Assembly: GCA_028718745.1 (NCBI GenBank)
Contig: JAQULF010000001.1
Coordinates: forward strand, 31,666 to 95,665
From: Patescibacteria group bacterium
GTDB lineage: Bacteria; Patescibacteriota; JACPGU01
Reading direction: 5' to 3'
DNA: 64,000 nucleotides
Shown: piece by piece, positions 14,266 through 46,304 of the stretch
Layout: every line of letters starts with the position of its first letter
How positions within the stretch are numbered: the stretch's first letter is position 1
The notes under the pieces: generated by a model
The model's input: only the letters and a program-made list of their open reading frames with translations
What the model was told of the DNA's origin: nothing
Database searches by the model: none
Program-made: the position numbers and the translations under genes

Positions 14266-15000
14266 TTACTCAAAATCGCTGCCCCAGACCCGGTCGGCCA
14301 CGCGCTCAAGGCGACACAGCGGAAACATGGACCAGAATTTTTTCTCCTGACCAGGGAAAGTGTAGTGCGGCGCGTAACTTGTTACCTGCAGTTCCTTGAA
14401 ACGAGAATGCAGGTGAGGAGTTAGTACCGCCAGCATTTTCCCGAAAGAAGAGGTCATCGTCTTGGCGTCAAGGAGATCTTTTGAGTTGCCATTCGGCTGA
14501 ACCACCTGTTCGAAGTAGCAATTATGTCCGCACGCGCTACCCCAGCGGAAGACTTCTGGGTCGAGACATTTGCTGACTTCTTCTTCGATTGAGCGAGGAT
14601 CATCCGAGATCATCTGACCATGCGCGAGTCTCCACTCAATTTCGGCTTCGCACCAACTCTGCCGGTTGTAGGAATATTCTATGAAGCCATTCCAGTAGCA
14701 GTGCTTGTAATTCTCGTCCCAGCGGCCGTTTTCGTCCGGTCCGTTACCGAATTGTTCGGTCAGAGCCAACATCACAATGAAGGCCTTGCCAGGCACATTG
14801 AAAAACAGACGCGACTCCTGGGCGAATCGGAACATGTCCACATGGTAATGGCTTGTTTTGCTGTTCATCGTGACCCATGCCATGTATCTGAATCCTTTCC
14901 TTATCATTTCATCCATCAATCGCTGGAAATACGCTTTTTCTGCTGTTTTGTAAGGAGCCATTGGTATCCCTCCGAATTGGATTTGAGGGCTGGGCATCAA
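14266..15000 (-). CDS. hypothetical protein, Trp/Cys/His-rich (GC-rich island)
   Basis: 244-aa ORF with much higher GC than flanking genes; hairpin terminator at 14228-14262; no recognisable domain. Confidence 0.4.
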   Translation of the reverse strand: MMPSPQIQFGGIPMAPYKTAEKAYFQRLMDEMIRKGFRYMAWVTMNSKTSHYHVDMFRFAQESRLFFNVPGKAFIVMLALTEQFGNGPDENGRWDENYKHCYWNGFIEYSYNRQSWCEAEIEWRLAHGQMISDDPRSIEEEVSKCLDPEVFRWGSACGHNCYFEQVVQPNGNSKDLLDAKTMTSSFGKMLAVLTPHLHSRFKELQVTSYAPHYTFPGQEKKFWSMFPLCRLERVADRVWGSDFE

Positions 15001-15260
15001 AAAACAGATGCCTAAACCGCATCTAAATTATATAGCAAAAAATAAATTTGTCAATATCTTTCCGGCCTATTTAAGCCAATAATCTTCAAATAAGCTTCCC
15101 GTTTTTACAAACAGCGGGGAGGGATTCCTGCTCGCTCCGACTCGCGGCCGGGGCGCTACACACAGAAGCCTTCGCTATGGCTCGGCTTCTATTCGCGCCC
15201 TTCGAATCCTTTCCAACATGATACTAAAAAATGACTCCTTAGAGTCATTTTTTAGTATAA

Positions 15261-15347
15261 CGGAGAGGGTGGGATTCGAACCCACGAGGAGCTTGCGCCC
15301 CTGACTGTTTTCAAGACAGTTCCATTCGACCACTCTGGCACCTCTCC
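15261..15347 (-). tRNA. tRNA-Ser (anticodon UGA), type II with long variable arm
   Basis: minus-strand read GGAGAGGTGCCAGAGTGGTCGAATGGAACTGTCTTGAAAACAGTC...GGTTCGAATCCCACCCTCTCCG; anticodon loop CTTGAAA; long variable arm; no encoded CCA. Confidence 0.85.
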
Positions 15348-15489
15348 ATATCGCTTCTTAAATATACCAAATAAAGAATGTTTTTTCAATTGAAAATAAT
15401 GGGGGAAGACAAATGTCTCCCATAAAACATCATCCATACAAAAACAACAGTTGATTTAACTGTTGTTTTTATCTATAGTGAAATAGAGC

Positions 15490-19471: not shown

Positions 19472-19543
19472 GTCCTCGTAGTTTAATGGATAGAATGCGG
19501 CCCTGCGAAGGCTGCGATCCAGGTTCGATTCCTGGCGAGGATA
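19472..19543 (+). tRNA. tRNA-Arg (anticodon GCG), G1-U72 acceptor pair
   Basis: cloverleaf: acceptor GTCCTCG/CGAGGAT, D-arm with GG, anticodon stem CGGCC/GGCTG with loop CTGCGAA, T-arm CCAGGTTCGATTCCTGG; discriminator A. Confidence 0.6.
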
Positions 19544-19832: not shown

Positions 19833-20960
19833 GTGGCAAAAAAATCAGGAAATGAGTATGCGGATGCAGGAGTGGACTACACAAAGCTGGAAGCTTTCAA
19901 AGACATGATGATCGAAGTCGGCAAGCGCACCACGGGATTCCCGAACATTCGCAATGTATGCGTCGTTACTGACGCAATCCATGCGCACGGCGCGGTTTTC
20001 GAGTACACCGGCGATCAGCCTCATATCTGGTGTAAGACTCAGGAGGGGCTCGGAAACCTGAACTGGATCGCCGAGTGGATGCTTCAATTCGACGGCACGA
20101 AACGCAGCCGTTATGATATCCTCGGTCGCGCAGCAGCGCTTCTCATCGCGATTGATGTCATCGCGCAGGGAGCAATGCCGGTAATCTGGACGGATGAAAT
20201 CGCCGCGGGAGACAGTGACTGGTTCACCAACAAACAGAGGGCGGCCGACTATGCACAGGGATGCTTCGATGTCTGCAAGGAAATCGGCATGGCTCTGCCG
20301 GCCGGCGAATCACCCGCGCTCAAGTATCTCATCAAAGCGGAGCCGCCTGTTACAAGTGCTCCGTCATTGAGCGGATCCATAACCGGCATAATCGCTCCGA
20401 AAAGCCGGCTTATCACGGGCGCAAAATTGCGAGCAGGAGATGTGATTCTGGGCGCTCCCTCATCAGGGCTTCATTCTAACGGAATATCGCTCGTGATCAA
20501 GGAGGTCATGAAACTCTCGGATCAGTTCCTTACCAAGCTCAACGGCCAGACAGTGGGCGAGGAATGTCTCATTCCGATTCCATCGTATGTCAAATTGGTC
20601 GAAGCCCTACTCGAAAACGAAATCGAAATCCACGCCATATTGCCGGCAACCGGAGACGGCGTCGGCAAAATCGCGTTCGACAAACGCCCGTTCACCTACC
20701 GGGTCCACACATGGTGGCCAAAGATACCGCCGCTGTTCCTTTTCATGAAAGAACTGGGCGTGACCCTCGAAGGATGCCTCAAAACCTTCAACTGGGGCGC
20801 CGGAATCTACTTCTATGTGCCACGCTCAAGCGTTGACTCGGCAGTGGAAGTCGCCGCGCACGCCGGGTATGATCTGCTCGAACTCGGCCGGGTTGAAGAA
20901 GGAGAACGAAAAACCATCTTCGAGCCGGAAAGCGTCACGCTTCCCCCGCCGGGAGAATAA
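19833..20960 (+). CDS. AIR synthase-related (PurM superfamily) protein, GC-rich, GTG start
   Basis: N-terminal YADAGVDYTKLEAFK like PurM YKDAGVDI; conserved APSSGLHSNGISLV (PurM GxHSNGxSL motif); ORF much GC-richer than surroundings; RBS aaacggggg before GTG. Confidence 0.6.
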   Translation: MAKKSGNEYADAGVDYTKLEAFKDMMIEVGKRTTGFPNIRNVCVVTDAIHAHGAVFEYTGDQPHIWCKTQEGLGNLNWIAEWMLQFDGTKRSRYDILGRAAALLIAIDVIAQGAMPVIWTDEIAAGDSDWFTNKQRAADYAQGCFDVCKEIGMALPAGESPALKYLIKAEPPVTSAPSLSGSITGIIAPKSRLITGAKLRAGDVILGAPSSGLHSNGISLVIKEVMKLSDQFLTKLNGQTVGEECLIPIPSYVKLVEALLENEIEIHAILPATGDGVGKIAFDKRPFTYRVHTWWPKIPPLFLFMKELGVTLEGCLKTFNWGAGIYFYVPRSSVDSAVEVAAHAGYDLLELGRVEEGERKTIFEPESVTLPPPGE

Positions 20961-34006: not shown

Positions 34007-35015
34007 TCATGCTGCTGTAGCAGCGGGAAACCAGCGGAAGGAGAAACGCTGCGTACCTTCCGCGGAATGGCTAGGACGAGCTCCGCCGACACGGATTCCG
34101 CTGGCATCGGAGCCACCGAAAAAGATCGGGTTGCCATCACGAGAAAGCGCGCGCGTCCAGCTCCAGAGATTTTCGAAGATGTTTTGACCTATCTGTTCGC
34201 GAGTGGCTGCGGAAAAGAGCAACCCTACGGCGGGAGAGGGCGAGCAGAACATCTGGTTTATTTTAAGGCCTGCCAGAATTATGGCGCCTTCTTGCCACTC
34301 GTTCCCTTCGATGAGAAAATTAATTCTGTTGTATTTCGCCTTGTTGAATTCCCGAACCGCTTCTTTGACTTCCATCGGCAGCACTGTCTCTTTATAAATC
34401 TGATTGCAGATGAAATCGCGGTGCATCTGAGTGTGCCGAAGAAAATTTTCTCCACCTGTGTTGGGGATGGGTTGAAGAGAATGCATCATCCAACCGGATT
34501 GTATGGGATCGGTAAAGAAGCTTTCTTTGCCTCCTCCATACCGGTCGGTATCGTAGAGCACCTTGCCCCAGCGTCTTCCTCCATACCGGAGTATGAGCTT
34601 TTCGTAAATCTCCTTCATTGACATGCCGCCCGGCCAGTAAATGAAGAAGTGCGGAAACACCGAATCGACATATCTCTGGAACTCCCATCTTCGGATCATA
34701 ATCGGCGGGAATTTATTGATCCCAATGCCGAAAAGATCACTGATGGTTTCCTTCGTCGCGATGAGCTGATAGCGCCTTTTCCCTGCGATTTCCAGCATCT
34801 CCTTGTAAGGAATCGCAATGGGCGGATCATAGTCAACTATGATTGGCGGCTTCGTTTTTATTGAACCAACTGCCGGATGACCAAACGCTTTCAGAACCTT
34901 CCGCCCGGCCACTATGTCATTAAAATCCTTGCGTGACAACTGGTCCCCTACCATCGCCACGAAATCCGAGAGCTTTTTGTACAGTACCTCCGATATCCAA
35001 TCTTTCTTTTCAGAC
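34007..35015 (-). CDS. hypothetical protein (GC-rich island)
   Basis: about 336-aa ORF starting MSEKKDWISEV; GC much higher than flanks; no recognised domain. Confidence 0.4.
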
Positions 35016-35258
35016 ATAACAACTCCTCTCCCGCTTTCGGCGAGTAGCCCTATCATGTCCGGGCTTTGGACACATTTGCCGCCTTTCGGGCGGTTGACCT
35101 TAGCTTTCAGATTTCAAGGTGCAATTTTATTCTATATTATTCTGGCTTATTTTTCAACATTTCTTGTTATAGCTAAAAAAAATAAATCCCTTGACGATTT
35201 TTTTATAAGATATATAATTAAAACTATACTGAATATATTACCAATAACCGTACGCTAT

Positions 35259-35540
35259 ATGTTACCAAATATAGTAACCACCTCCCAACTTCGCCAGAAT
35301 CTTTCCGCCTTTCTAACGCTGGCCGGAAACAACCTTGTGATTGTTAAAAGCAAAGAGTCAAACAAAGTGATCATGGATGAAAAAGAATATAATCGCCTTT
35401 CGTCTCTAGCCAATCAATTTATAAATGAAGATCCCGAAGGAAAATACCGTCCTTCATTTGAAAAAGAAATTCTAAAAAGATCTCGTGATGGTGATATTGA
35501 TAAAAGAGTCAAATCTCTTAAAGCTCTATGCACAAAGTAA
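35259..35540 (+). CDS. Type II antitoxin, Phd/YefM-like
   Basis: MLPNIVTTSQLRQNLSAFLTLAGNNLVIVKSKESNKVIMDEKEYNRL resembles Phd/YefM; overlaps toxin start; inverted repeat gttaccaaatatagtaac at its start. Confidence 0.6.
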   Translation: MLPNIVTTSQLRQNLSAFLTLAGNNLVIVKSKESNKVIMDEKEYNRLSSLANQFINEDPEGKYRPSFEKEILKRSRDGDIDKRVKSLKALCTK

Positions 35541-36637: not shown

Positions 36638-37024
36638 TTATGACGCCGTGGCCGGTTGGGGAGCGTTGATCAGCTCGATGAGCTGTGCAATCCCTTCCTG
36701 TGTTTCAGGGAGGATGGTTACTCCGTCAGAGGAGGTGACATCCTCCGGACGGGAAGCGAAAATCACTGCTTCCATGCCCCTAAAGTGCCCGACGATGTCC
36801 TTTGCTTCTTTCAGCATGCTGGCCGAGAAGTAGATGACGAAGTTGCGCTGCAAGTCCTGGCCTCTGGAGCAGGCATCCCTCGCAGACCTCATGGAGTCCG
36901 TAACGAAAGTTCCGTGACCCGCCTGCTTGAGAGCTTGATCCACAAACTTCCAGAACGGTTGAGACATGGAGGTGGGACTCAAAATCCCAACACCATCATG
37001 ACAGATAACCACATTTTCTTTCAT
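36638..37024 (-). CDS. hypothetical protein (GC-rich island)
   Basis: 128-aa ORF, GC-rich, no motif recognised. Confidence 0.35.
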   Translation of the reverse strand: MKENVVICHDGVGILSPTSMSQPFWKFVDQALKQAGHGTFVTDSMRSARDACSRGQDLQRNFVIYFSASMLKEAKDIVGHFRGMEAVIFASRPEDVTSSDGVTILPETQEGIAQLIELINAPQPATAS

Positions 37025-37348: not shown

Positions 37349-37370
37349 TTAATAATTCTAATACATTTAA

Positions 37371-37753
37371 TGGACCTGGAGGGAATCGGACCCTCGTGCA
37401 AAAAGTTAAAAAAGCAGCCTCTACAAGTTTAGTTCCGGTTGGTATTTTGGACAGAAGTAACTTGTCCCGCCAAAGGCGGGAAACCGAAACAAAATAATTC
37501 TATCCTATCCTTAATAGTCTTAACCCCGCCTACCAAGGAATACCTGGGCGGGGAGCAGCCCAATAAGTTGACACCGCATTCATATCCTTGGGCGAAATAT
37601 GGTGCGATGCCTGCTTGTCGTTTTTTAGGCGAAAGCAGGGGCAAAATTTGTTTTGCCTTGTGTTGTTGTTTGATTAGTTTTAAGAGTTTACAAACATCAC
37701 TCTACTTGCATCCGCTTTTTTAAGGATCTTTTTGGCGATACCAATGCAGGCCC
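37371..37753 (-). ncRNA. ssrA: tmRNA (SsrA)
   Basis: minus-strand 5-prime GGGCCUG pairs with 3-prime CAGGUCC-A giving G3-U70; T-arm GAGGGTCCGATTCCCTC; internal tag frame GGC AAA ACA AAT TTT GCC CCT GCT TTC GCC TAA (GKTNFAPAFA) about 96 nt from 5-prime end; TATAAT just upstream. Confidence 0.8.
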
Positions 37754-38915: not shown

Positions 38916-39674
38916 ATGGAAAACATTCTTTGGTATGTAGGAGGATTTTTGTTCGTTCTGATTTGCGCATCGATCAAAGTCGTTCAGCAGTATGAAAAAG
39001 GCGTCGTTTTTCTTTTCGGAAAAGTAACCGGAGAAAAAGCCCCGGGATTGCGTTGGGTCTGGCCAATTGTTGAGAGTATGCGAAAAGTACCCCTAAGAAT
39101 TGTAACTATGCCGATTCCTTCGCAAAAAATTATTACCAAAGATAATGTGTCCATTGATGTAGCGGCAGTGGCCTATTTTAAGGTGGTGGACGCGACTAAA
39201 TCAATTGTGGCAATCCAAGATGTTTATAGCGCCGTCAACCAGATCGCGCAAACAACTGTCAGAAATATCGTAGGACAATTTCGACTGGATGAAATATTGT
39301 CCGATACCGCCAAAATTAACGAGCAAATCAGCGGTATCATCGATACCCACACGGAACCTTGGGGTATATTGGTTACTACCGTAGAGATCAAAGATATTCA
39401 ATTGCCCGAAGGAATGCAAAGAGCGATGGCGAAAGAGGCCGAAGCGGAAAGAGAAAAAAGAGCTAAAATTATCTCCGCTGAAGGAGAACTTTTGGCAGCC
39501 GACAAACTTGGCCAAGCCTCTGATATTATTGCCAAGCATCCGATCGCTTTGCAACTTCGTAATCTCCAAGTTCTCTCCGAAATCGCCGTTGAGAAAAATT
39601 CAACTATAATATTTCCGAACCAATTTATGAATACAGTTAGCGAGATTAAAAAGTTTTTTGGAGGAGAGAAATAA
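38916..39674 (+). CDS. SPFH/band 7 (stomatin-like) protein
   Basis: N-terminal TM then [31 protein letters not shown] and [16 protein letters not shown] coiled coil. Confidence 0.85.
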
Positions 39675-40383
39675 AGAAATCCACATTAAGCAATTAAATT
39701 TTATGAAACTAAAAACACTTGGCGACTTAAAATCAAGACCTTGGTATAGATTATTGCAAGTTTTTTATACGATTGCTTTCGTTTTGGCGATTGTTTTGAC
39801 TATCGGCATAACGATTGCTGAGAGTATCACAGAAGGTTCAAGAAAGGAAGCTGAACACACCATGGTTAATTGTAATAACGGAAATAAGTATTTATTAAAA
39901 GATATATTAAACAATGTAAATACTTATAGCGATTATATTAATATCTACGAAATAAAGGCTACTTGTATAAGAGGACTCGGCGCGGATTTGTATGATTATC
40001 CAATTACCACACACGCAAAACCTAAGGCTAATAGCTTATTATATCCAAGTCTTCGCAGCACCATAACCACTCCGACTGAATATGTAACTGAACCAACCCA
40101 AACAAAAAATAGCGAGATTGATAAAATGCCTCAAAATTACATGATTGAATGGAGCTATCACAGTTGGGCGCTTATAGTTTTGCTGGGTTTTCTGATATTA
40201 TTGGCCGTAATAATCGTTTTTGAATTTATAAAAAGATGCTTCTACTACATTATTTTGGGTAAGATATTCCCACCAAAAGGACATCTAAAGGAATTTGATG
40301 ACGAGTTGGTATGCCCTACCTGCAACAATGCCATATCTCAAGATGATAAATTCTGCGAGAAATGCGGCAAGAAAACAAGATAA
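39658..40383 (+). CDS. hypothetical membrane protein with C-terminal zinc ribbon
   Basis: [21 protein letters not shown]; two TM helices. Confidence 0.45.
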
Positions 40384-40401: not shown

Positions 40402-41259
40402 ATGTTCTGCAAACAATGCGGTACAAAAATAGGCGAAGATGCGATTTTTTGTTCTAAATGCGGAGTGAAGACAGGTAGTGCAACTGATATTCCCCGAAAA
40501 GAAAAAACACAACCAATTACTGTGGTACCTGCAAGCAATAAATATTCTCACTTTTTGCATGATAGCAAAAAGGCAACCGAAGATAAGGTCATATTCGATC
40601 TTGATGGAAAAGAAGTAATAGTTTTTATTGAGAAATTGGGAATAAAAAATTCCGCTTTTGTCGTATCCGTCAACAGCAAAGAGTCTTACCGATGCGATTG
40701 GGAATCATTTGAGAAAAGCGGCAAAAAATTGAATGTAAGCGGTCATGTCGTTGAAGTAAAATATAAAAAAGTGAGCAACAGCTTTTCACTTTGGAATATA
40801 GTGCCGAAAGAAAAAGGTCTCATAGTAAAAATAGATGGAAAGTCTTTAAGGGGAACTGTTGGCGATCCAATCAAAAAGATTGAAGAAGCGGGAGGAGCTC
40901 TCGCGTTTTACATAATCAGTATTATACTGACATGGATATTTATGATTTCATCAACTTCGGATCCTGCTTTGCTCTCTCTTGTCTCATTCTTTTCGCTAGT
41001 TTTAGTTTTGTTCATAATGTACCTGATAATATACAGAAAATCTTTGGTGGGTTTATTGTTGGGTACCGTTCTCGCTATGATAGAATTAATTACATGGTTT
41101 GACAGTACTGCAAGTAGCAGTAAAACCTCATCAGGAGCCATGGTAGTCTGGGCGATACTTCGAATAGGAATAATTTATTATTTGATTAATGGCATTATCG
41201 CTGCTATAAAGGTTATGAAATATAATAGAAAAAATAGATCTTTGGTCGGAGAAAAATAA
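40402..41259 (+). CDS. hypothetical membrane protein with N-terminal zinc ribbon
   Basis: MFCKQCGTKIGEDAIFCSKCG; C-terminal TM helices. Confidence 0.5.
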   Translation: MFCKQCGTKIGEDAIFCSKCGVKTGSATDIPRKEKTQPITVVPASNKYSHFLHDSKKATEDKVIFDLDGKEVIVFIEKLGIKNSAFVVSVNSKESYRCDWESFEKSGKKLNVSGHVVEVKYKKVSNSFSLWNIVPKEKGLIVKIDGKSLRGTVGDPIKKIEEAGGALAFYIISIILTWIFMISSTSDPALLSLVSFFSLVLVLFIMYLIIYRKSLVGLLLGTVLAMIELITWFDSTASSSKTSSGAMVVWAILRIGIIYYLINGIIAAIKVMKYNRKNRSLVGEK

Positions 41260-42272: not shown

Positions 42273-42455
42273 AATTATTATCTTTTCTCCACTAGAAACG
42301 CGATATAGTTTTTCCGATAAAAATTGACTTATGTAAGCAAATAATATATAATACTATGTATATTAGATATGTCCTTTAATAGACAATTTTTAAAGATTTT
42401 TTATTTTGATGATAATAAATTGAAATAAAAAAAATGAAAACAAGGAGATGGGGCC

Positions 42456-44450
42456 ATGAAGAAGAACAAGGCGGGTTCGGCTGTTCCGGTGTTGGAATAC
42501 CCGGAGATCGATCTGTGGAAGAGGAAATCGTCTCCAGAAGATTCCCTCCAGATCATCAACAAGGAAGATTTCCCATTCGATCAGATCATGGAAAATCTGG
42601 GGCTTGAATGCCGAAGATCGCTGGCAGGAAGCTTCGGTATTCGCGACATCACCGAGATCGTGAGGCGTCAGGAACTCATGAAGCTCATCATGTATGAAAG
42701 AAAGCTTTGTGAATTCCTGATCAAGGAGAAGAATCTGGCTACAGATTTCCCCCAAGATCACAACAGCTTCATCCAGTACCACAATCCGGACAGGGTTCAT
42801 AACCCCTTCTGGACAAGGATTCATGAACTGCTGGAAATGCTGGATAGGATGCCAGTTCGCGATGCGGAGCTCGTAAAGCTTCGCACCTTCCTGAAGTCAT
42901 CGCTCAAGTTCGAGGAAATCGAGCGGGTAATGGCGCGGCGCATCATTGAAAAAATGGATGCGATGGCCGTCATTGAGGGAAGTATCACCTTCAAACTGGG
43001 TAAAGCATTAAATACAGATAAGGTGATAAGGAAGCAGGTCTACGGATATCGCATCTACTCGCTTTCACTAAGCAACGCCGGTAAACAGCCATACCCGGCG
43101 TGGACGAAGCAAGCGGGCTGTATGAAAACGATCAAGATTACCCGTATCGGCGAAATCTATACCGACTGGCGTAACGATCAGGAGCTTGCGACGGCGCTCA
43201 AAGGCAGAGAAATCACGGATCTGAGCGAAGAAATGATCCGGGATATAAGCGATGCAACCAATCTGTTACTCCAGAATTGGGATGACAATCGCATCAAAGA
43301 CACAGAATTAGGGAGAGAAATCCGGAACAGGTTCAATGGCGGTATAGTTAGTGTGAGCTTCGCGTACAGCATCGAAGGGCTGAAGCTCCATATTTACAAT
43401 CTCGAACCGACGCCGGAAATCCGCTCCTTTTCCTATGAGTACCCCGTGTGTATTCCGCGCAGGGAGGGCAAGAAAATCATCACTATGCGTGCACGGATTG
43501 CGACGAAAACGGAACAGTTCATTCGGCAGATGAACGCGGGTGCGGTGGCATATTTTCTGAAGGACGGAAATATCGAGTTCTTCGATAAAGAGCACCGCGT
43601 CAGCTCATCCAGATTCGACGAAGAGCACAAGCACTTTGCTCTCCCGAATATCTTCAAAGATCCCGAGATCAAGCCGATCGCGGATGCATTGCTGAAGTTG
43701 CGCAGGTTCTGCGCTGACCAGTTTGAAATCCTGGGACAGCTCGCGGAGCTTGTCAGCAATTGCAAGGCGCTCGCGGACAGAATCGGATCGCCCATAACCT
43801 TCCCGGAAATCTTGCCGGATTCACAAAACATCGTCGCATTTGAGGAACTATTTCCCGTTCATCTGGCATTGCAAAATCGGGGCGCAGACAGTGGAAAGAT
43901 TGTGCCGATCAGGCGACTCCCGCCTGTGAACGGATCGATGTTGGCACTGACAGGTGCGCACGGCGGCGGCAAAACCGTGACCGAGCTGACGCTCGCCATC
44001 AATCTTTGGCTGGCACAGAGCGGTCTGCCGGTATTCGGCAAGGGTTTCAAATTCAACATCAAAGATACAATCGGGCTGGTCTTCATCAATCGCGGAGAAG
44101 GATCCACCTGTGAGCAGCTCGTGACGAAAATCATGGAAATCCTGGTTGTGCTCAAAGTATCCGACCACAAGAAAATTCTCGTCATCATCGACGAGTTGGG
44201 TACGGGTACACAGGAGGAGAGCGGACTCGAGCTGGGCAGGGATCTGCTCAAAAAGCTCCATGCCGAACACACCAGTGTGCTTTTCAGCACGCAGATTACA
44301 CTACTAGCGCAGTTTGCAGTGGACAATCTCGGCGCGCAGAGCTTCATGTTCGCGCCCGACCACAGCATTCTACCTGGCATCGGAAAGGGAGGCATGGAAG
44401 ATCTTCGATCGAGACTGGGAGTGGATAAACTGCTCTTGGTCGAAAATTGA
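42456..44450 (+). CDS. Large GC-rich protein with C-terminal MutS-domain-V-like ABC ATPase
   Basis: Walker A LTGAHGGGKTVT, Walker B/D-loop VIIDELGTGTQEESGLELG resembling MutS/MutS2 nucleotide-binding domain (GPNMGGKS ... DEIGRGTSTYDG); about 450-aa N-terminal region unrecognised; strong GC3 bias unlike host. Confidence 0.55.
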   Translation: MKKNKAGSAVPVLEYPEIDLWKRKSSPEDSLQIINKEDFPFDQIMENLGLECRRSLAGSFGIRDITEIVRRQELMKLIMYERKLCEFLIKEKNLATDFPQDHNSFIQYHNPDRVHNPFWTRIHELLEMLDRMPVRDAELVKLRTFLKSSLKFEEIERVMARRIIEKMDAMAVIEGSITFKLGKALNTDKVIRKQVYGYRIYSLSLSNAGKQPYPAWTKQAGCMKTIKITRIGEIYTDWRNDQELATALKGREITDLSEEMIRDISDATNLLLQNWDDNRIKDTELGREIRNRFNGGIVSVSFAYSIEGLKLHIYNLEPTPEIRSFSYEYPVCIPRREGKKIITMRARIATKTEQFIRQMNAGAVAYFLKDGNIEFFDKEHRVSSSRFDEEHKHFALPNIFKDPEIKPIADALLKLRRFCADQFEILGQLAELVSNCKALADRIGSPITFPEILPDSQNIVAFEELFPVHLALQNRGADSGKIVPIRRLPPVNGSMLALTGAHGGGKTVTELTLAINLWLAQSGLPVFGKGFKFNIKDTIGLVFINRGEGSTCEQLVTKIMEILVVLKVSDHKKILVIIDELGTGTQEESGLELGRDLLKKLHAEHTSVLFSTQITLLAQFAVDNLGAQSFMFAPDHSILPGIGKGGMEDLRSRLGVDKLLLVEN

Positions 44451-44491
44451 TTTCCGAGCCATACCTATTCAATCACTTCAAGTTCACAGTT

Positions 44492-44525
44492 CCGCCGCGG
44501 ATAAATCCCGCGGCGGATTTTTTTA
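44492..44525. terminator. Bidirectional terminator between MutS-like gene and typA
   Basis: ccgccgcgg-ataaat-cccgcggcgg then T-run. Confidence 0.7.
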
Positions 44526-46304
44526 TGTTCTCCTTGCTCTATTCCGATCATTCTCTGTGAGATACTTTTTTCTCAACCGAATACTTTTCGGAGTTATTTC
44601 GAGATATTCGTCGTCGCTCATTGTTTCCATTCCTCTTTCGATGTTAAGTTTAACCGGTGGAACCAGTTTGATCGCTTCATCATTTCCCGCGGCGCGGGTA
44701 TTGGTTAGCTGTTTTCCTTTGGTCGGATTAACCGCCATATCATTTCCTTTAGCGCAGTTGCCAATTACCATACCCTCGTAAACTTCAGTGTTGGCGTCAA
44801 TATATAATTGTCCACGATCTTGTAGATTCCAAAGCGCAAAGCCGAGAGCCTTGCCGGTCGCCATAGAAATCATTGAACCTAATTCATTTTTCTCGATCTC
44901 GCCAACGAATTCTTTGAATCCAATTACGCGCGAATAAAGAATTCCTTCGCCTTTAGTGTCTATGATAAATTCTCCGCGATAGCCCAAAAGCCCGCGGGTT
45001 GGTATCTCATAAATAATGCGAGTGTGTCCACCTTCAGGTGTCATTTCCAGCAATTTGCCCTTTCTCTTGTTTAACTTTGCAATTACCGTTCCTGACAATT
45101 CATCCGGAACACTGATGGTTACTTCTTCAAACGGTTCCAGTTTAACTCCACTCTCTTCTTTTATAATCACTTGCGGTTGAGAAATTTGAACCTCAAAACC
45201 TTCCCTTCTCATATTTTCAAGTAATATTGAAATGTGAAGCTCGCCCCTACCAAAAACTTTGTAGGAATCATTAGAGGAAAAATCAATTTTTAGCCCCACA
45301 TTCACTTCCAACTCTTTTTTCAATCTTTCTTTAATTTGACGATTAGTCACAAATTTTCCTTCGCGACCGGCAAATGGAGAGTTATTTACTAAAAAGCTTA
45401 GACAAATTGTCGGTTCATCAATTTTTATTTCCGGCAATGCCTCTTGGTCTTTGTCTAGACATATAGTTTCTCCGATAAAAATATCGGGGATTCCGGCGAT
45501 CATGACTATATCGCCTCCGTAAGCTTCGGAAACTTCTTGGCGCTCTATGCCGTTGAAATTAAAAAGCTTGGTAATCTTGCCATTGCGAACTGAACCGTCA
45601 GTTTTTTTAACGATCACATTGGAAGGCGCTTTGATGGTGCCCTCGTAAATTCTACCAACAGCAAGCCTACCCAAAAAATTATCATAGGCCAGATTGAATG
45701 GCTGAAAACGAAGTGGAAGATCCGGTTCTGATCGAGCCGGTGGAACCACACGAAGGATTGTGTCGAGCAATGGTGTTAGGTCAGAAGAATTGTCTTCCAG
45801 TTTTAATTTGGCTATGCCGTCTCGTCCGACAGCATAGACAGTTTCAAAGTCTAATTGCTCGTCGGTCGCGCCAAGATCGTAAAATAATTCAAAAACCAGT
45901 TCCTGGACAATTTCGGGACGGGCTGCCGGCTTGTCTATTTTGTTGATTATAACAATAGGCTTGAGACCAAGCTCAAGCGATTTTTTCAAAACGAACTTGG
46001 TTTGAGGCATCGGCCCTTCCTGCGCGTCTACGACGAGCAATACTGAATCAATGGAGCGTAAAACTCGCTCAACTTCCGATCCGAAATCGGCGTGTCCGGG
46101 AGTATCTACGATATTGATCTTGGTATCTTTGTAGAAAATTGAAGTATTTTTTGAGTAAATAGTAATACCGCGCTCTTTTTCCAGAGCGTTATTGTCCATG
46201 CTTACTCCTTCAGCCACAACGCCAGTCTGGCGCATCAAGGCATCCGTAAGCAAAGTTTTTCCATGATCTACATGGGCGATAATAGCTATATTCCTAATAT
46301 CCAT
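44523..46304 (-). CDS. typA: Translational GTPase TypA/BipA
   Basis: [27 protein letters not shown]; BipA C-terminal domain. Confidence 0.95.

Follow-up and report, generated by a model that had tools for sequence, protein, structure and literature searches.

What is the function of a bacterial protein that joins a MutS-like ATPase at its C-terminus to some 450 N-terminal residues of uncertain affinity? This question is raised by a gene for a 664-amino-acid protein (hereafter the MutS-like gene and protein) on a 64,000-nucleotide stretch of Patescibacteria DNA (the window). An earlier reading made from the letters alone, here called the sequence-only reading, had pictured the protein as an orphan and as a possible single-gene defence or repair factor acquired by horizontal gene transfer (HGT). 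Our results point to another function. With a probability of roughly 0.6, the protein would be an ATP-gated, homodimeric clamp of the MutS type, which binds nucleic acid and acts as a sensor or remodeller without a nuclease of its own. The argument is built on the following parts of the gene:

42456..44450, plus strand: coding sequence of the MutS-like protein, 664 amino acids, ATG start (open reading frame listing)
42456..42641, plus strand: N-terminal segment, residues 1-62, with the conserved motifs YPE..LW and IINxGDFP (family conservation)
42642..43760, plus strand: putative diverged and expanded core/lever resembling MutS domain III, residues ~63-435 (weak MutS_III matches and helices of an AlphaFold2 model)
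43344..43406, plus strand: conserved beta-hairpin, residues 297-317, VxFxYxxxGLxxxIY (AlphaFold2 secondary structure and conservation)
43833..44447, plus strand: MutS-type ABC ATPase (domain V), residues ~460-664 (Pfam, NCBIfam, PDB, hhalign and Foldseek)

The listing of open reading frames (ORFs) bore out the 664-residue frame and the Walker A and B motifs that had been noticed in it. At its C-terminus the protein carries a full ABC ATPase of the MutS type. This ATPase is closest to that of MutS2, and has Gln in place of the His of the H-loop. Its Walker A motif is LTGAHGGGKTVT (residues 497-508), with the core GAHGGGKT (residues 499-507, nucleotides 43950-43976). The Walker B motif VIIDE, with D579/E580 at nucleotides 44190-44195, forms together with the D-loop LGTGT the string VIIDELGTGT (residues 576-585), and the ABC signature GST contains S550/T551. 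Among 61 homologues, Lys506, Asp579-Glu580 and Ser550-Thr551 were invariant, and the motifs GAHGGGKT, VIIDE and GST were invariant or nearly so. Gln613 (FSTQI, nucleotides 44292-44294) occupies the site of the H-loop His; it was aligned with the His of the MutS2 motif TTH/ATTH in every printed alignment, and was kept in at least 90% of the family members.

Profile searches agreed on the type of ATPase. Pfam MutS_V matched the window protein with E=1.4e-6 and 28.9 bits, slightly under its cut-off of 30.2 bits. The same model matched 60 of the 61 family members, and 19 of 20 members that were scanned individually fell under the 30.2-bit gathering cut-off (range 14-33 bits). In the PDB, the single protein matched the MutS2 structure 9kce with E=1.4e-9 (residues 481-661). 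The family profile matched MutS2 chains with E=1e-14 to 4e-13, against 2e-7 to 2e-5 for MutS1/MSH chains. Since the MutS2 chains scored better than the MutS1/MSH chains, the ATPase appears nearer to the MutS2 lineage. Furthermore, hhalign aligned the family with a MutS2 profile over residues 462-643 at a probability of 98.4%, and the MutS1 models of NCBIfam reached only E=0.0025-0.022 with the window protein. Pfam MutS_V, NCBIfam, the PDB MutS2 matches and Foldseek thus all support the earlier view that the ATPase is MutS/MutS2-like and not transporter-like.

The protein is not an orphan. An exhaustive HMMER scan of 1.84 billion representative proteins (50%-identity clusters) found 188 clusters at E<=1e-30; with the limit relaxed to E<=1e-10 and E<=1e-3, there were 238 and 989 matches, respectively. 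The top matches were 640-700 amino acids long, 28-39% identical, and aligned over residues ~10-660 with the N-terminus included; the closest homologue had 39% identity. Word-indexed searches, whether started from the single protein or from a 61-sequence profile, had returned the protein itself plus two weak MutS2 matches, and the label of orphan that they seemed to justify was overturned by the exhaustive scan.

Regarding the N-terminal region, the sequence-only reading had seen no obvious similarity. This held in comparison with other families, but not within the family, where the region was well conserved, and a weak signal of MutS_III was found as well. In the 61-sequence alignment, W21, N35, F39, G61, E67, R71, P99, F105, W119, E156, G175 and G197 were invariant or nearly so. 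Such columns continued through F302, Y304, G308, L309, D388, R416 and P450 up to the ATPase motifs, so that conservation extended over the full length. Pfam MutS_III gave weak matches in 6 of the 61 members. In member P0028 (E=4.9e-5, 24.2 bits), residues 52-263 were aligned with profile positions 46-155, and in member P0019 (E=0.018) residues 57-444 were aligned with positions 46-186. Both matches began at the residue homologous to R63 of the window protein, which lies inside the motif GIxDxxEIxxRQ (E67 and R71 invariant). This motif presumably resembles the conserved 'D...I..R...V..L' helix of MutS domain III. A match to the Msh3 profile extended from profile position 362.

The ~62 residues ahead of R63 have about the right length for positions 1-45 of the MutS_III profile, and we infer that by position residues 1-62 may correspond to this initial stretch (~45 positions) of MutS domain III. 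MutS_I and MutS_II gave no match at E<=1 in any of the 61 members, and Pfam models for KOW and Smr matched neither the window protein nor the 61 members, in agreement with the earlier remark that mismatch-binding, connector and Smr domains are absent. Because the MutS_III alignment begins at residue 63, there is no room for domains I and II. Our reading of these alignments is that the N-terminal ~450 residues represent a strongly diverged, about two-fold expanded core/lever of MutS domain III, and that this domain is the first one in the protein, which would be a feature in common with MutS2.

A structure model gave further indications. The AlphaFold2 model built with the family alignment had a predicted local distance difference test score (pLDDT) of 90.4 and a predicted template modelling score (pTM) of 0.81; with the single sequence only, AlphaFold gave a pLDDT of 32.7 and a model of no use. 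Long helices were predicted at residues 258-292, 335-371 and 406-443. The beta-hairpin of residues 297-317 lies between two long helices, its residues F302, Y304, G308 and L309 are nearly invariant, and it is flanked family-wide by basic patches at residues 211-250 and 331-360 (net charge +3.1 and +2.0 per 20 residues, respectively). In the model, this hairpin is a candidate for a clamp-like tip. Foldseek searches of the PDB and BFVD returned as top matches only MutS, MSH, MutS2 or the MutS7/MutS8 proteins of giant viruses, the latter names being labels on structural matches (probability 1.0, E ~1e-13). Superposition was dependable for ~300 residues, namely those of the ATPase and of the last helix of the lever, and MutS2 crystal cores superposed over ~296 columns at 5.7-6.7 Å.

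How might such a protein work? By analogy with the MutS superfamily, it would form a homodimer in which the two ATPase heads open and close the lever and clamp around nucleic acid. With the Walker A Lys, the Walker B Asp-Glu and the signature Ser-Thr all in place, the protein should bind and hydrolyse ATP. The family-wide Gln in the H-loop suggests slow hydrolysis and a long-lived, switch-like ATP-bound state. The substrate would be contacted through the lever and the hairpin region, and the protein would then act as an ATP-gated sensor or remodeller and not as a nuclease. The most likely substrate would be DNA, either branched or duplex; this choice is tentative, and we hold it at somewhat less than even odds.

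Several results weigh against parts of this interpretation. The top MutS_III score of 24.2 bits lies under the cut-off of 34.1 bits. Foldseek also gave alignments of 650-700 columns, at a root-mean-square deviation of 14-16 Å. Because unrelated ABC transporters yield alignments of equal length, these were not counted as support for the N-terminal assignment. The hhalign comparison with MutS2 profiles of 2 and then 122 sequences was significant only over residues ~462-643, and an extension into the N-terminus obtained at low mact was an alignment of zero confidence. A profile of the family N-terminus scored ~0 bits in an hmmsearch against the 122 MutS2 sequences, and in a search of PDB sequences it returned spurious nanobody matches only. 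Moreover, the printed alignments indicate that the protein ends with the ATPase fold and may lack the C-terminal helix-turn-helix. In MutS, this helix-turn-helix aids dimerisation.

The NCBIfam results raise the alternative of a reactivating chaperone ATPase for a metabolic enzyme, similar to KamC, or else of a truncated or degenerate MutS2. The top NCBIfam match was indeed the KamC reactivase (NF052383; E=1.5e-11, residues 494-612), and with a core/lever and an ATPase but no Smr, the protein looks like a MutS2 that has been shortened. However, KamC reached 43.8 of the 300 bits required, and the partial match to mutS2 (TIGR01069) 37.9 of 400. Neither an aminomutase nor another conserved partner was found nearby. 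Together with the ~0 bits of the N-terminal profile on 122 MutS2 sequences, the low TIGR01069 score also speaks against a canonical MutS2 that merely lacks Smr, which the sequence-only reading had considered as a way in which it might be wrong. Furthermore, length and N-terminal motifs were conserved over the 188 clusters, and the protein is therefore not a product of decay. We consider this alternative very improbable, and retain the MutS-type clamp as the preferred interpretation.

The gene appears to be expressed on its own. Besides the coding sequence, the following elements were found around it:

42324-42352, plus strand: candidate sigma-70-like promoter, TTGACT-17-TATAAT, 11 of 12 consensus positions (consensus match only)
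42442-42448, plus strand: Shine-Dalgarno sequence AAGGAGA, 7 nucleotides 5' of the ATG (direct sequence reading)
44491..44524, plus strand: predicted intrinsic terminator, consisting of a hairpin at 44491-44517 (10-bp stem with 9 G-C pairs, 7-nucleotide loop) followed by T7 (terminator scan and reading)
44523-46304, minus strand: TypA/BipA, the convergent neighbour (ORF listing)

The promoter-like site sits in an intergenic spacer of 25-29% GC. The terminator is placed between the convergent MutS-like and TypA/BipA genes, where the stop codon of TypA abuts the T-run. Hence, the MutS-like gene is probably a single transcription unit with its own predicted promoter and terminator. Upstream of it, at 39658-40383 and 40402-41259 (both plus strand), are two adjacent genes for membrane proteins, with a short zinc ribbon that is C-terminal in one and N-terminal in the other. 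The MutS-like protein was 100% identical to protein PHU42_00445 of a metagenome-assembled genome at NCBI (Patescibacteria group bacterium, contig of 209 kb), where it is labelled 'hypothetical protein'. An independent contig from the Logan assembly (L027) showed the identical order of genes around the MutS-like gene.

To see the family in its genomic setting, we fetched 65 loci: 26 from GTDB species genomes and 39 from JGI metagenomes. The records with titles were nearly all Patescibacteria, including Parcubacteria, Nomura-, Nealson- and Vogelbacteria and 'Saccharibacteria'. Two loci suggest sporadic transfer beyond this group. In L006 (CAZCTG010000015.1, 3866-5866) the neighbours were of archaeal type (an RPA-type OB-fold protein, DUF373 and prismane), and in L007 (JBDRIN010000004.1, 3311-5416) a neighbouring phosphate-selective porin indicated a diderm. 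A third locus, L023 (CAZCQW010000003.1), is labelled 'uncultured Gammaproteobacteria' and was syntenic with the Patescibacteria locus L018 (JBAYIC010000001.1). The MutS-like copies of these two loci were 49% identical, compared to 75% for the neighbouring SecA-like and 83% for the neighbouring Band-7 proteins. In view of this synteny and the identity of the neighbours, the label Gammaproteobacteria is probably wrong, and some bin labels of third-party annotation (TPA) records are unreliable. In two other loci (L003 and L005), the MutS-like copies were 63% identical and had zero neighbours in common. These comparisons describe what seems to be a fast-evolving gene, at times passed on vertically and often moved within or between genomes. 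A literature search found no paper on a CPR-centred or CPR-specific MutS family, where CPR is the candidate phyla radiation, i.e. the Patescibacteria. Judged from its sequences, the family would be a distinct and as yet unnamed subfamily within the MutS superfamily, placed on the MutS2 side of its tree and found mainly in CPR bacteria.

Did the gene arrive by HGT? The GC-rich codon usage, the GC step at the gene and the hairpin terminator described in the sequence-only reading were all recovered. GC content was 0.25-0.29 just upstream of the gene, 0.49-0.56 within it and ~0.43 after it. The gene as a whole had a GC content of 0.509, and its GC content at third codon positions (GC3) of 0.639, versus a window mean of 0.387 (standard deviation 0.08), ranked first among the 56 window ORFs of at least 150 amino acids. 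GC contents at the three codon positions (GC1/GC2/GC3) were 0.535/0.353/0.639, compared to window means of 0.47/0.34/0.39, and the excess was thus almost wholly synonymous. Relative synonymous codon usage (RSCU) of the gene correlated with that of 33 host genes at r=-0.15, whereas host genes averaged 0.69 with a minimum of 0.39. In contrast, it correlated at r=0.74 with the codon usage pooled from four further window ORFs that are rich in GC3 (0.57-0.64). These ORFs are:

14266-15000, minus strand: GC3-rich ORF
19833-20960, plus strand: GC3-rich ORF
34007-35056, minus strand: GC3-rich ORF
36638-37024, minus strand: GC3-rich ORF

The codon usage of these four ORFs correlated with that of the host at r=-0.13 to 0.06, and three of the four had no Pfam or PHROG match. 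Since they share the codon usage of the MutS-like gene, ~8% of the window looks compositionally foreign. Three of the four adjoin genes for tRNA-Ser (15260-15348), tRNA-Arg (19472-19543) and transfer-messenger RNA (tmRNA; 37368-37753, minus strand). Genes for tRNA and tmRNA are classic sites of integration. Near the GC-rich ORFs that adjoin them, neither an integrase nor a repeat was seen, and the three of the four GC-rich ORFs that were searched in IMG/VR had no relatives there.

Three observations concern these surroundings. The tmRNA gene scored 120.8 bits with Rfam; ARAGORN made no call. The product of 19833-20960 (plus strand) has a PurM/AIR-synthase-like fold (Pfam AIRS and AIRS_C) and matched PHROG 1207, 'phosphoribosylaminoimidazole synthetase', of the auxiliary metabolic gene class (E=8.5e-24). 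Possibly, this is a gene of the purine pathway that a CPR genome obtained from a phage; IMG/VR contained no close relative. Finally, the ORF at 34914-35540 (plus strand) had a weak match to Phd/YefM-like antitoxins (E=4e-5) and shares ~140 nucleotides with the 5' end of the oppositely oriented GC-rich ORF 34007-35056. Given this overlap, the start of one of the two ORFs may have been called wrongly.

Because the codon usage of the MutS-like gene is foreign to the host and common to four scattered ORFs, horizontal acquisition in this genome is most likely, as the sequence-only reading had proposed. Some results argue in the other direction. Near the MutS-like gene there was no integrase, insertion scar or pair of flanking direct repeats, and no donor was found. 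A relative without the gene was not found either, and the look-up of the exact protein gave only contig L027 of the same organism. The case for HGT therefore seems to be one of composition only, with a nearest homologue that is just 39% identical.

The compositional difference recurred across the family. The gene exceeded its flanks in GC content, by a mean of +0.055 in one set of 24 loci and of +0.062 in another set of 24. Relative to neighbouring ORFs, the mean excess was +0.089 for GC3, +0.033 for GC1 and +0.004 for GC2. In 13 of 33 loci (e.g. L001, L003, L011, L035 and L049) the MutS-like gene was the ORF with the highest GC3, where roughly 3 would be expected by chance. In L001 (10013-12049), the GC content in 500-base windows stepped from 0.33 to 0.49-0.54 at about the start of the coding sequence, as in the window. 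On the GC-rich archaeal-type contig L006, the MutS-like gene was the ORF with the lowest GC3 (0.52 versus 0.72). Fast evolution and a GC3 that is recurrently an outlier fit transfer of the gene among CPR genomes and, now and then, outside them. The net GC3 excess does not seem to be fully explained by random exchange; GC-biased gene conversion and a GC-richer reservoir are possibilities.

A mobile gene of this kind could be a stand-alone anti-phage or abortive-infection ATPase, i.e. a single-gene sensor of phage nucleic acid that is spread by HGT, much as the sequence-only reading had imagined. The foreign codon usage, the monocistronic arrangement, a sequence that evolves faster than its syntenic neighbours, a patchy distribution and unconserved synteny would all fit this idea. 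However, the neighbourhoods of the gene did not. The 129 nearest neighbours in 26 loci were housekeeping genes, such as sigma-70, GTPases of the Der/YchF/RsgA type, SecA, ribonucleotide reductase, UvrD, RecR and PolA, and restriction-modification, toxin-antitoxin or abortive infection (Abi) themes were absent among them. Hence, the association with defence islands that was to be looked for among the homologues did not appear. The paired nuclease genes that had been suggested did not appear either: there was no conserved partner or nuclease gene, and no cluster of neighbours was common to more than 4 of 27 loci. Neither the MutS-like protein nor any conserved neighbour contained an effector or nuclease domain, and in L018 and L023 the gene lies in conserved synteny, adjoining the SecA-like gene.

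Searches for relatives among defence systems and mobile elements gave a similar picture. PADLOC returned nothing significant, and its only match (mads_8, E=0.0096) would be weak support for defence at best. The same applies to the one matching PHROGs family, which is of unknown function and was matched on the ATPase domain only. Scans of the 2.9 million contigs of IMG/VR with the protein and with the alignment found no family member, and tblastn against phages and plasmids gave only ATPase-level matches of MutS2. The housekeeping context, the lack of a conserved neighbour and the lack of relatives in PADLOC, phages and plasmids mean that defence is not supported, and we regard it as unlikely.

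The neighbours also bear on a role in ribosome rescue, in which the protein would split stalled or collided ribosomes like MutS2/RqcU, with the recruitment domains replaced by the N-terminus of the family. Among characterised proteins, those closest to it in the ATPase belong to MutS2, the ribosome-bound B. subtilis structures 7qv3 and 8qpp among them. In the window TypA/BipA converges on the MutS-like gene, and in L001 it is found at a distance of 4 kb. The tmRNA gene of the window is 5 kb from the MutS-like gene, and ribosome-binding GTPases were the most frequent family of neighbours (4 of 129). This enrichment is slight, however, there is no conserved operon, and neighbours from DNA metabolism (UvrD, RecR, PolA and ribonucleotide reductase) were about as frequent. 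In B. subtilis, KOW and SMR bring MutS2 to collided ribosomes (PMC10897456). Both recruitment domains are missing from the family protein, which weakens the case for a ribosome-splitting role, and we think it improbable that the protein has one. A nucleic acid-binding clamp of the MutS type remains our preferred interpretation.

A broader proposal goes beyond this clamp. The family could be a new, CPR-centred MutS subfamily (candidate 'MutS9') with its own substrate-recognition module, which would serve genome maintenance or translation surveillance, a task for which the reduced genomes of CPR bacteria cannot rely on canonical MutS/MutL or MutS2. It would circulate as a single-gene cassette among CPR lineages and occasionally reach archaea or diderms, and its GC3 excess would be kept by repeated transfer or GC-biased gene conversion. 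Taken as a whole, this proposal is rather doubtful.

The family deserves attention for several reasons. Paralogues of MutS have repeatedly been found in unexpected jobs: MutS2 splits collided ribosomes, and KamC is an enzyme reactivase according to NCBIfam. The present family has at least 188 clusters; most of its individually scanned members fall under the Pfam cut-off, the window copy is annotated as hypothetical, and word-indexed searches miss it. The repertoires of Patescibacteria for DNA repair and ribosome quality control are reduced and poorly understood, and knowledge of the substrate would fill a gap both in CPR biology and in MutS evolution. Moreover, the recurrent GC3 excess in many AT-rich genomes provides a clean test case for distinguishing HGT from GC-biased gene conversion in uncultivated bacteria.

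How does the family compare with known systems? With Septu PtuA, Gabija GajA and PARIS AriA it shares the general idea of a stand-alone ABC-type ATPase only; unlike these, it has no PADLOC match, partner nuclease or defence-island context. KamC, its top NCBIfam match on the ATPase core, is an example of a MutS-like ATPase in a role that does not involve DNA. The family differs from KamC in its low score, with 119 residues aligned, and in the absence of a metabolic partner nearby in 26 loci. With MutS1/MSH it has the domain V fold and, putatively, a lever like domain III in common, but it lacks domain I, with the Phe-X-Glu mismatch reader, and domain II.

Known MutS subfamilies are MutS1-5 (Lin, Nei & Ma 2007, PMC2190696) and, going by the labels of the Foldseek matches, MutS7/8 of giant viruses. 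MutS3, MutS4 and MutS5 were described from Firmicutes, Proteobacteria, Cyanobacteria and archaea (PMC2190696), at a time when there were no genomes of CPR bacteria. Compared by description only, MutS3-5 and the present family are alike in their C-terminal ATPase, unknown function and suspected HGT. MutS4 genes occur as adjacent A/B pairs (PMC2190696), and the solitary arrangement of the present gene argues against MutS4.

The closest likeness is to MutS2 (TIGR01069; PDB 9kce, 7vuf and 7qv3), which gave the best similarity to the family in both sequence and fold of the ATPase. MutS2 has its core/lever at the start and contains KOW and Smr (PMC10897456). In contrast, the family protein lacks the coiled coil, KOW and Smr nuclease and ends with the ATPase, its N-terminal region is ~150 residues longer and without recognisable sequence similarity, the H-loop His is changed to Gln, and its TIGR01069 score remains far below the cut-off. 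Like MutS2, however, it appears to begin directly with the core/lever, without domains I and II.

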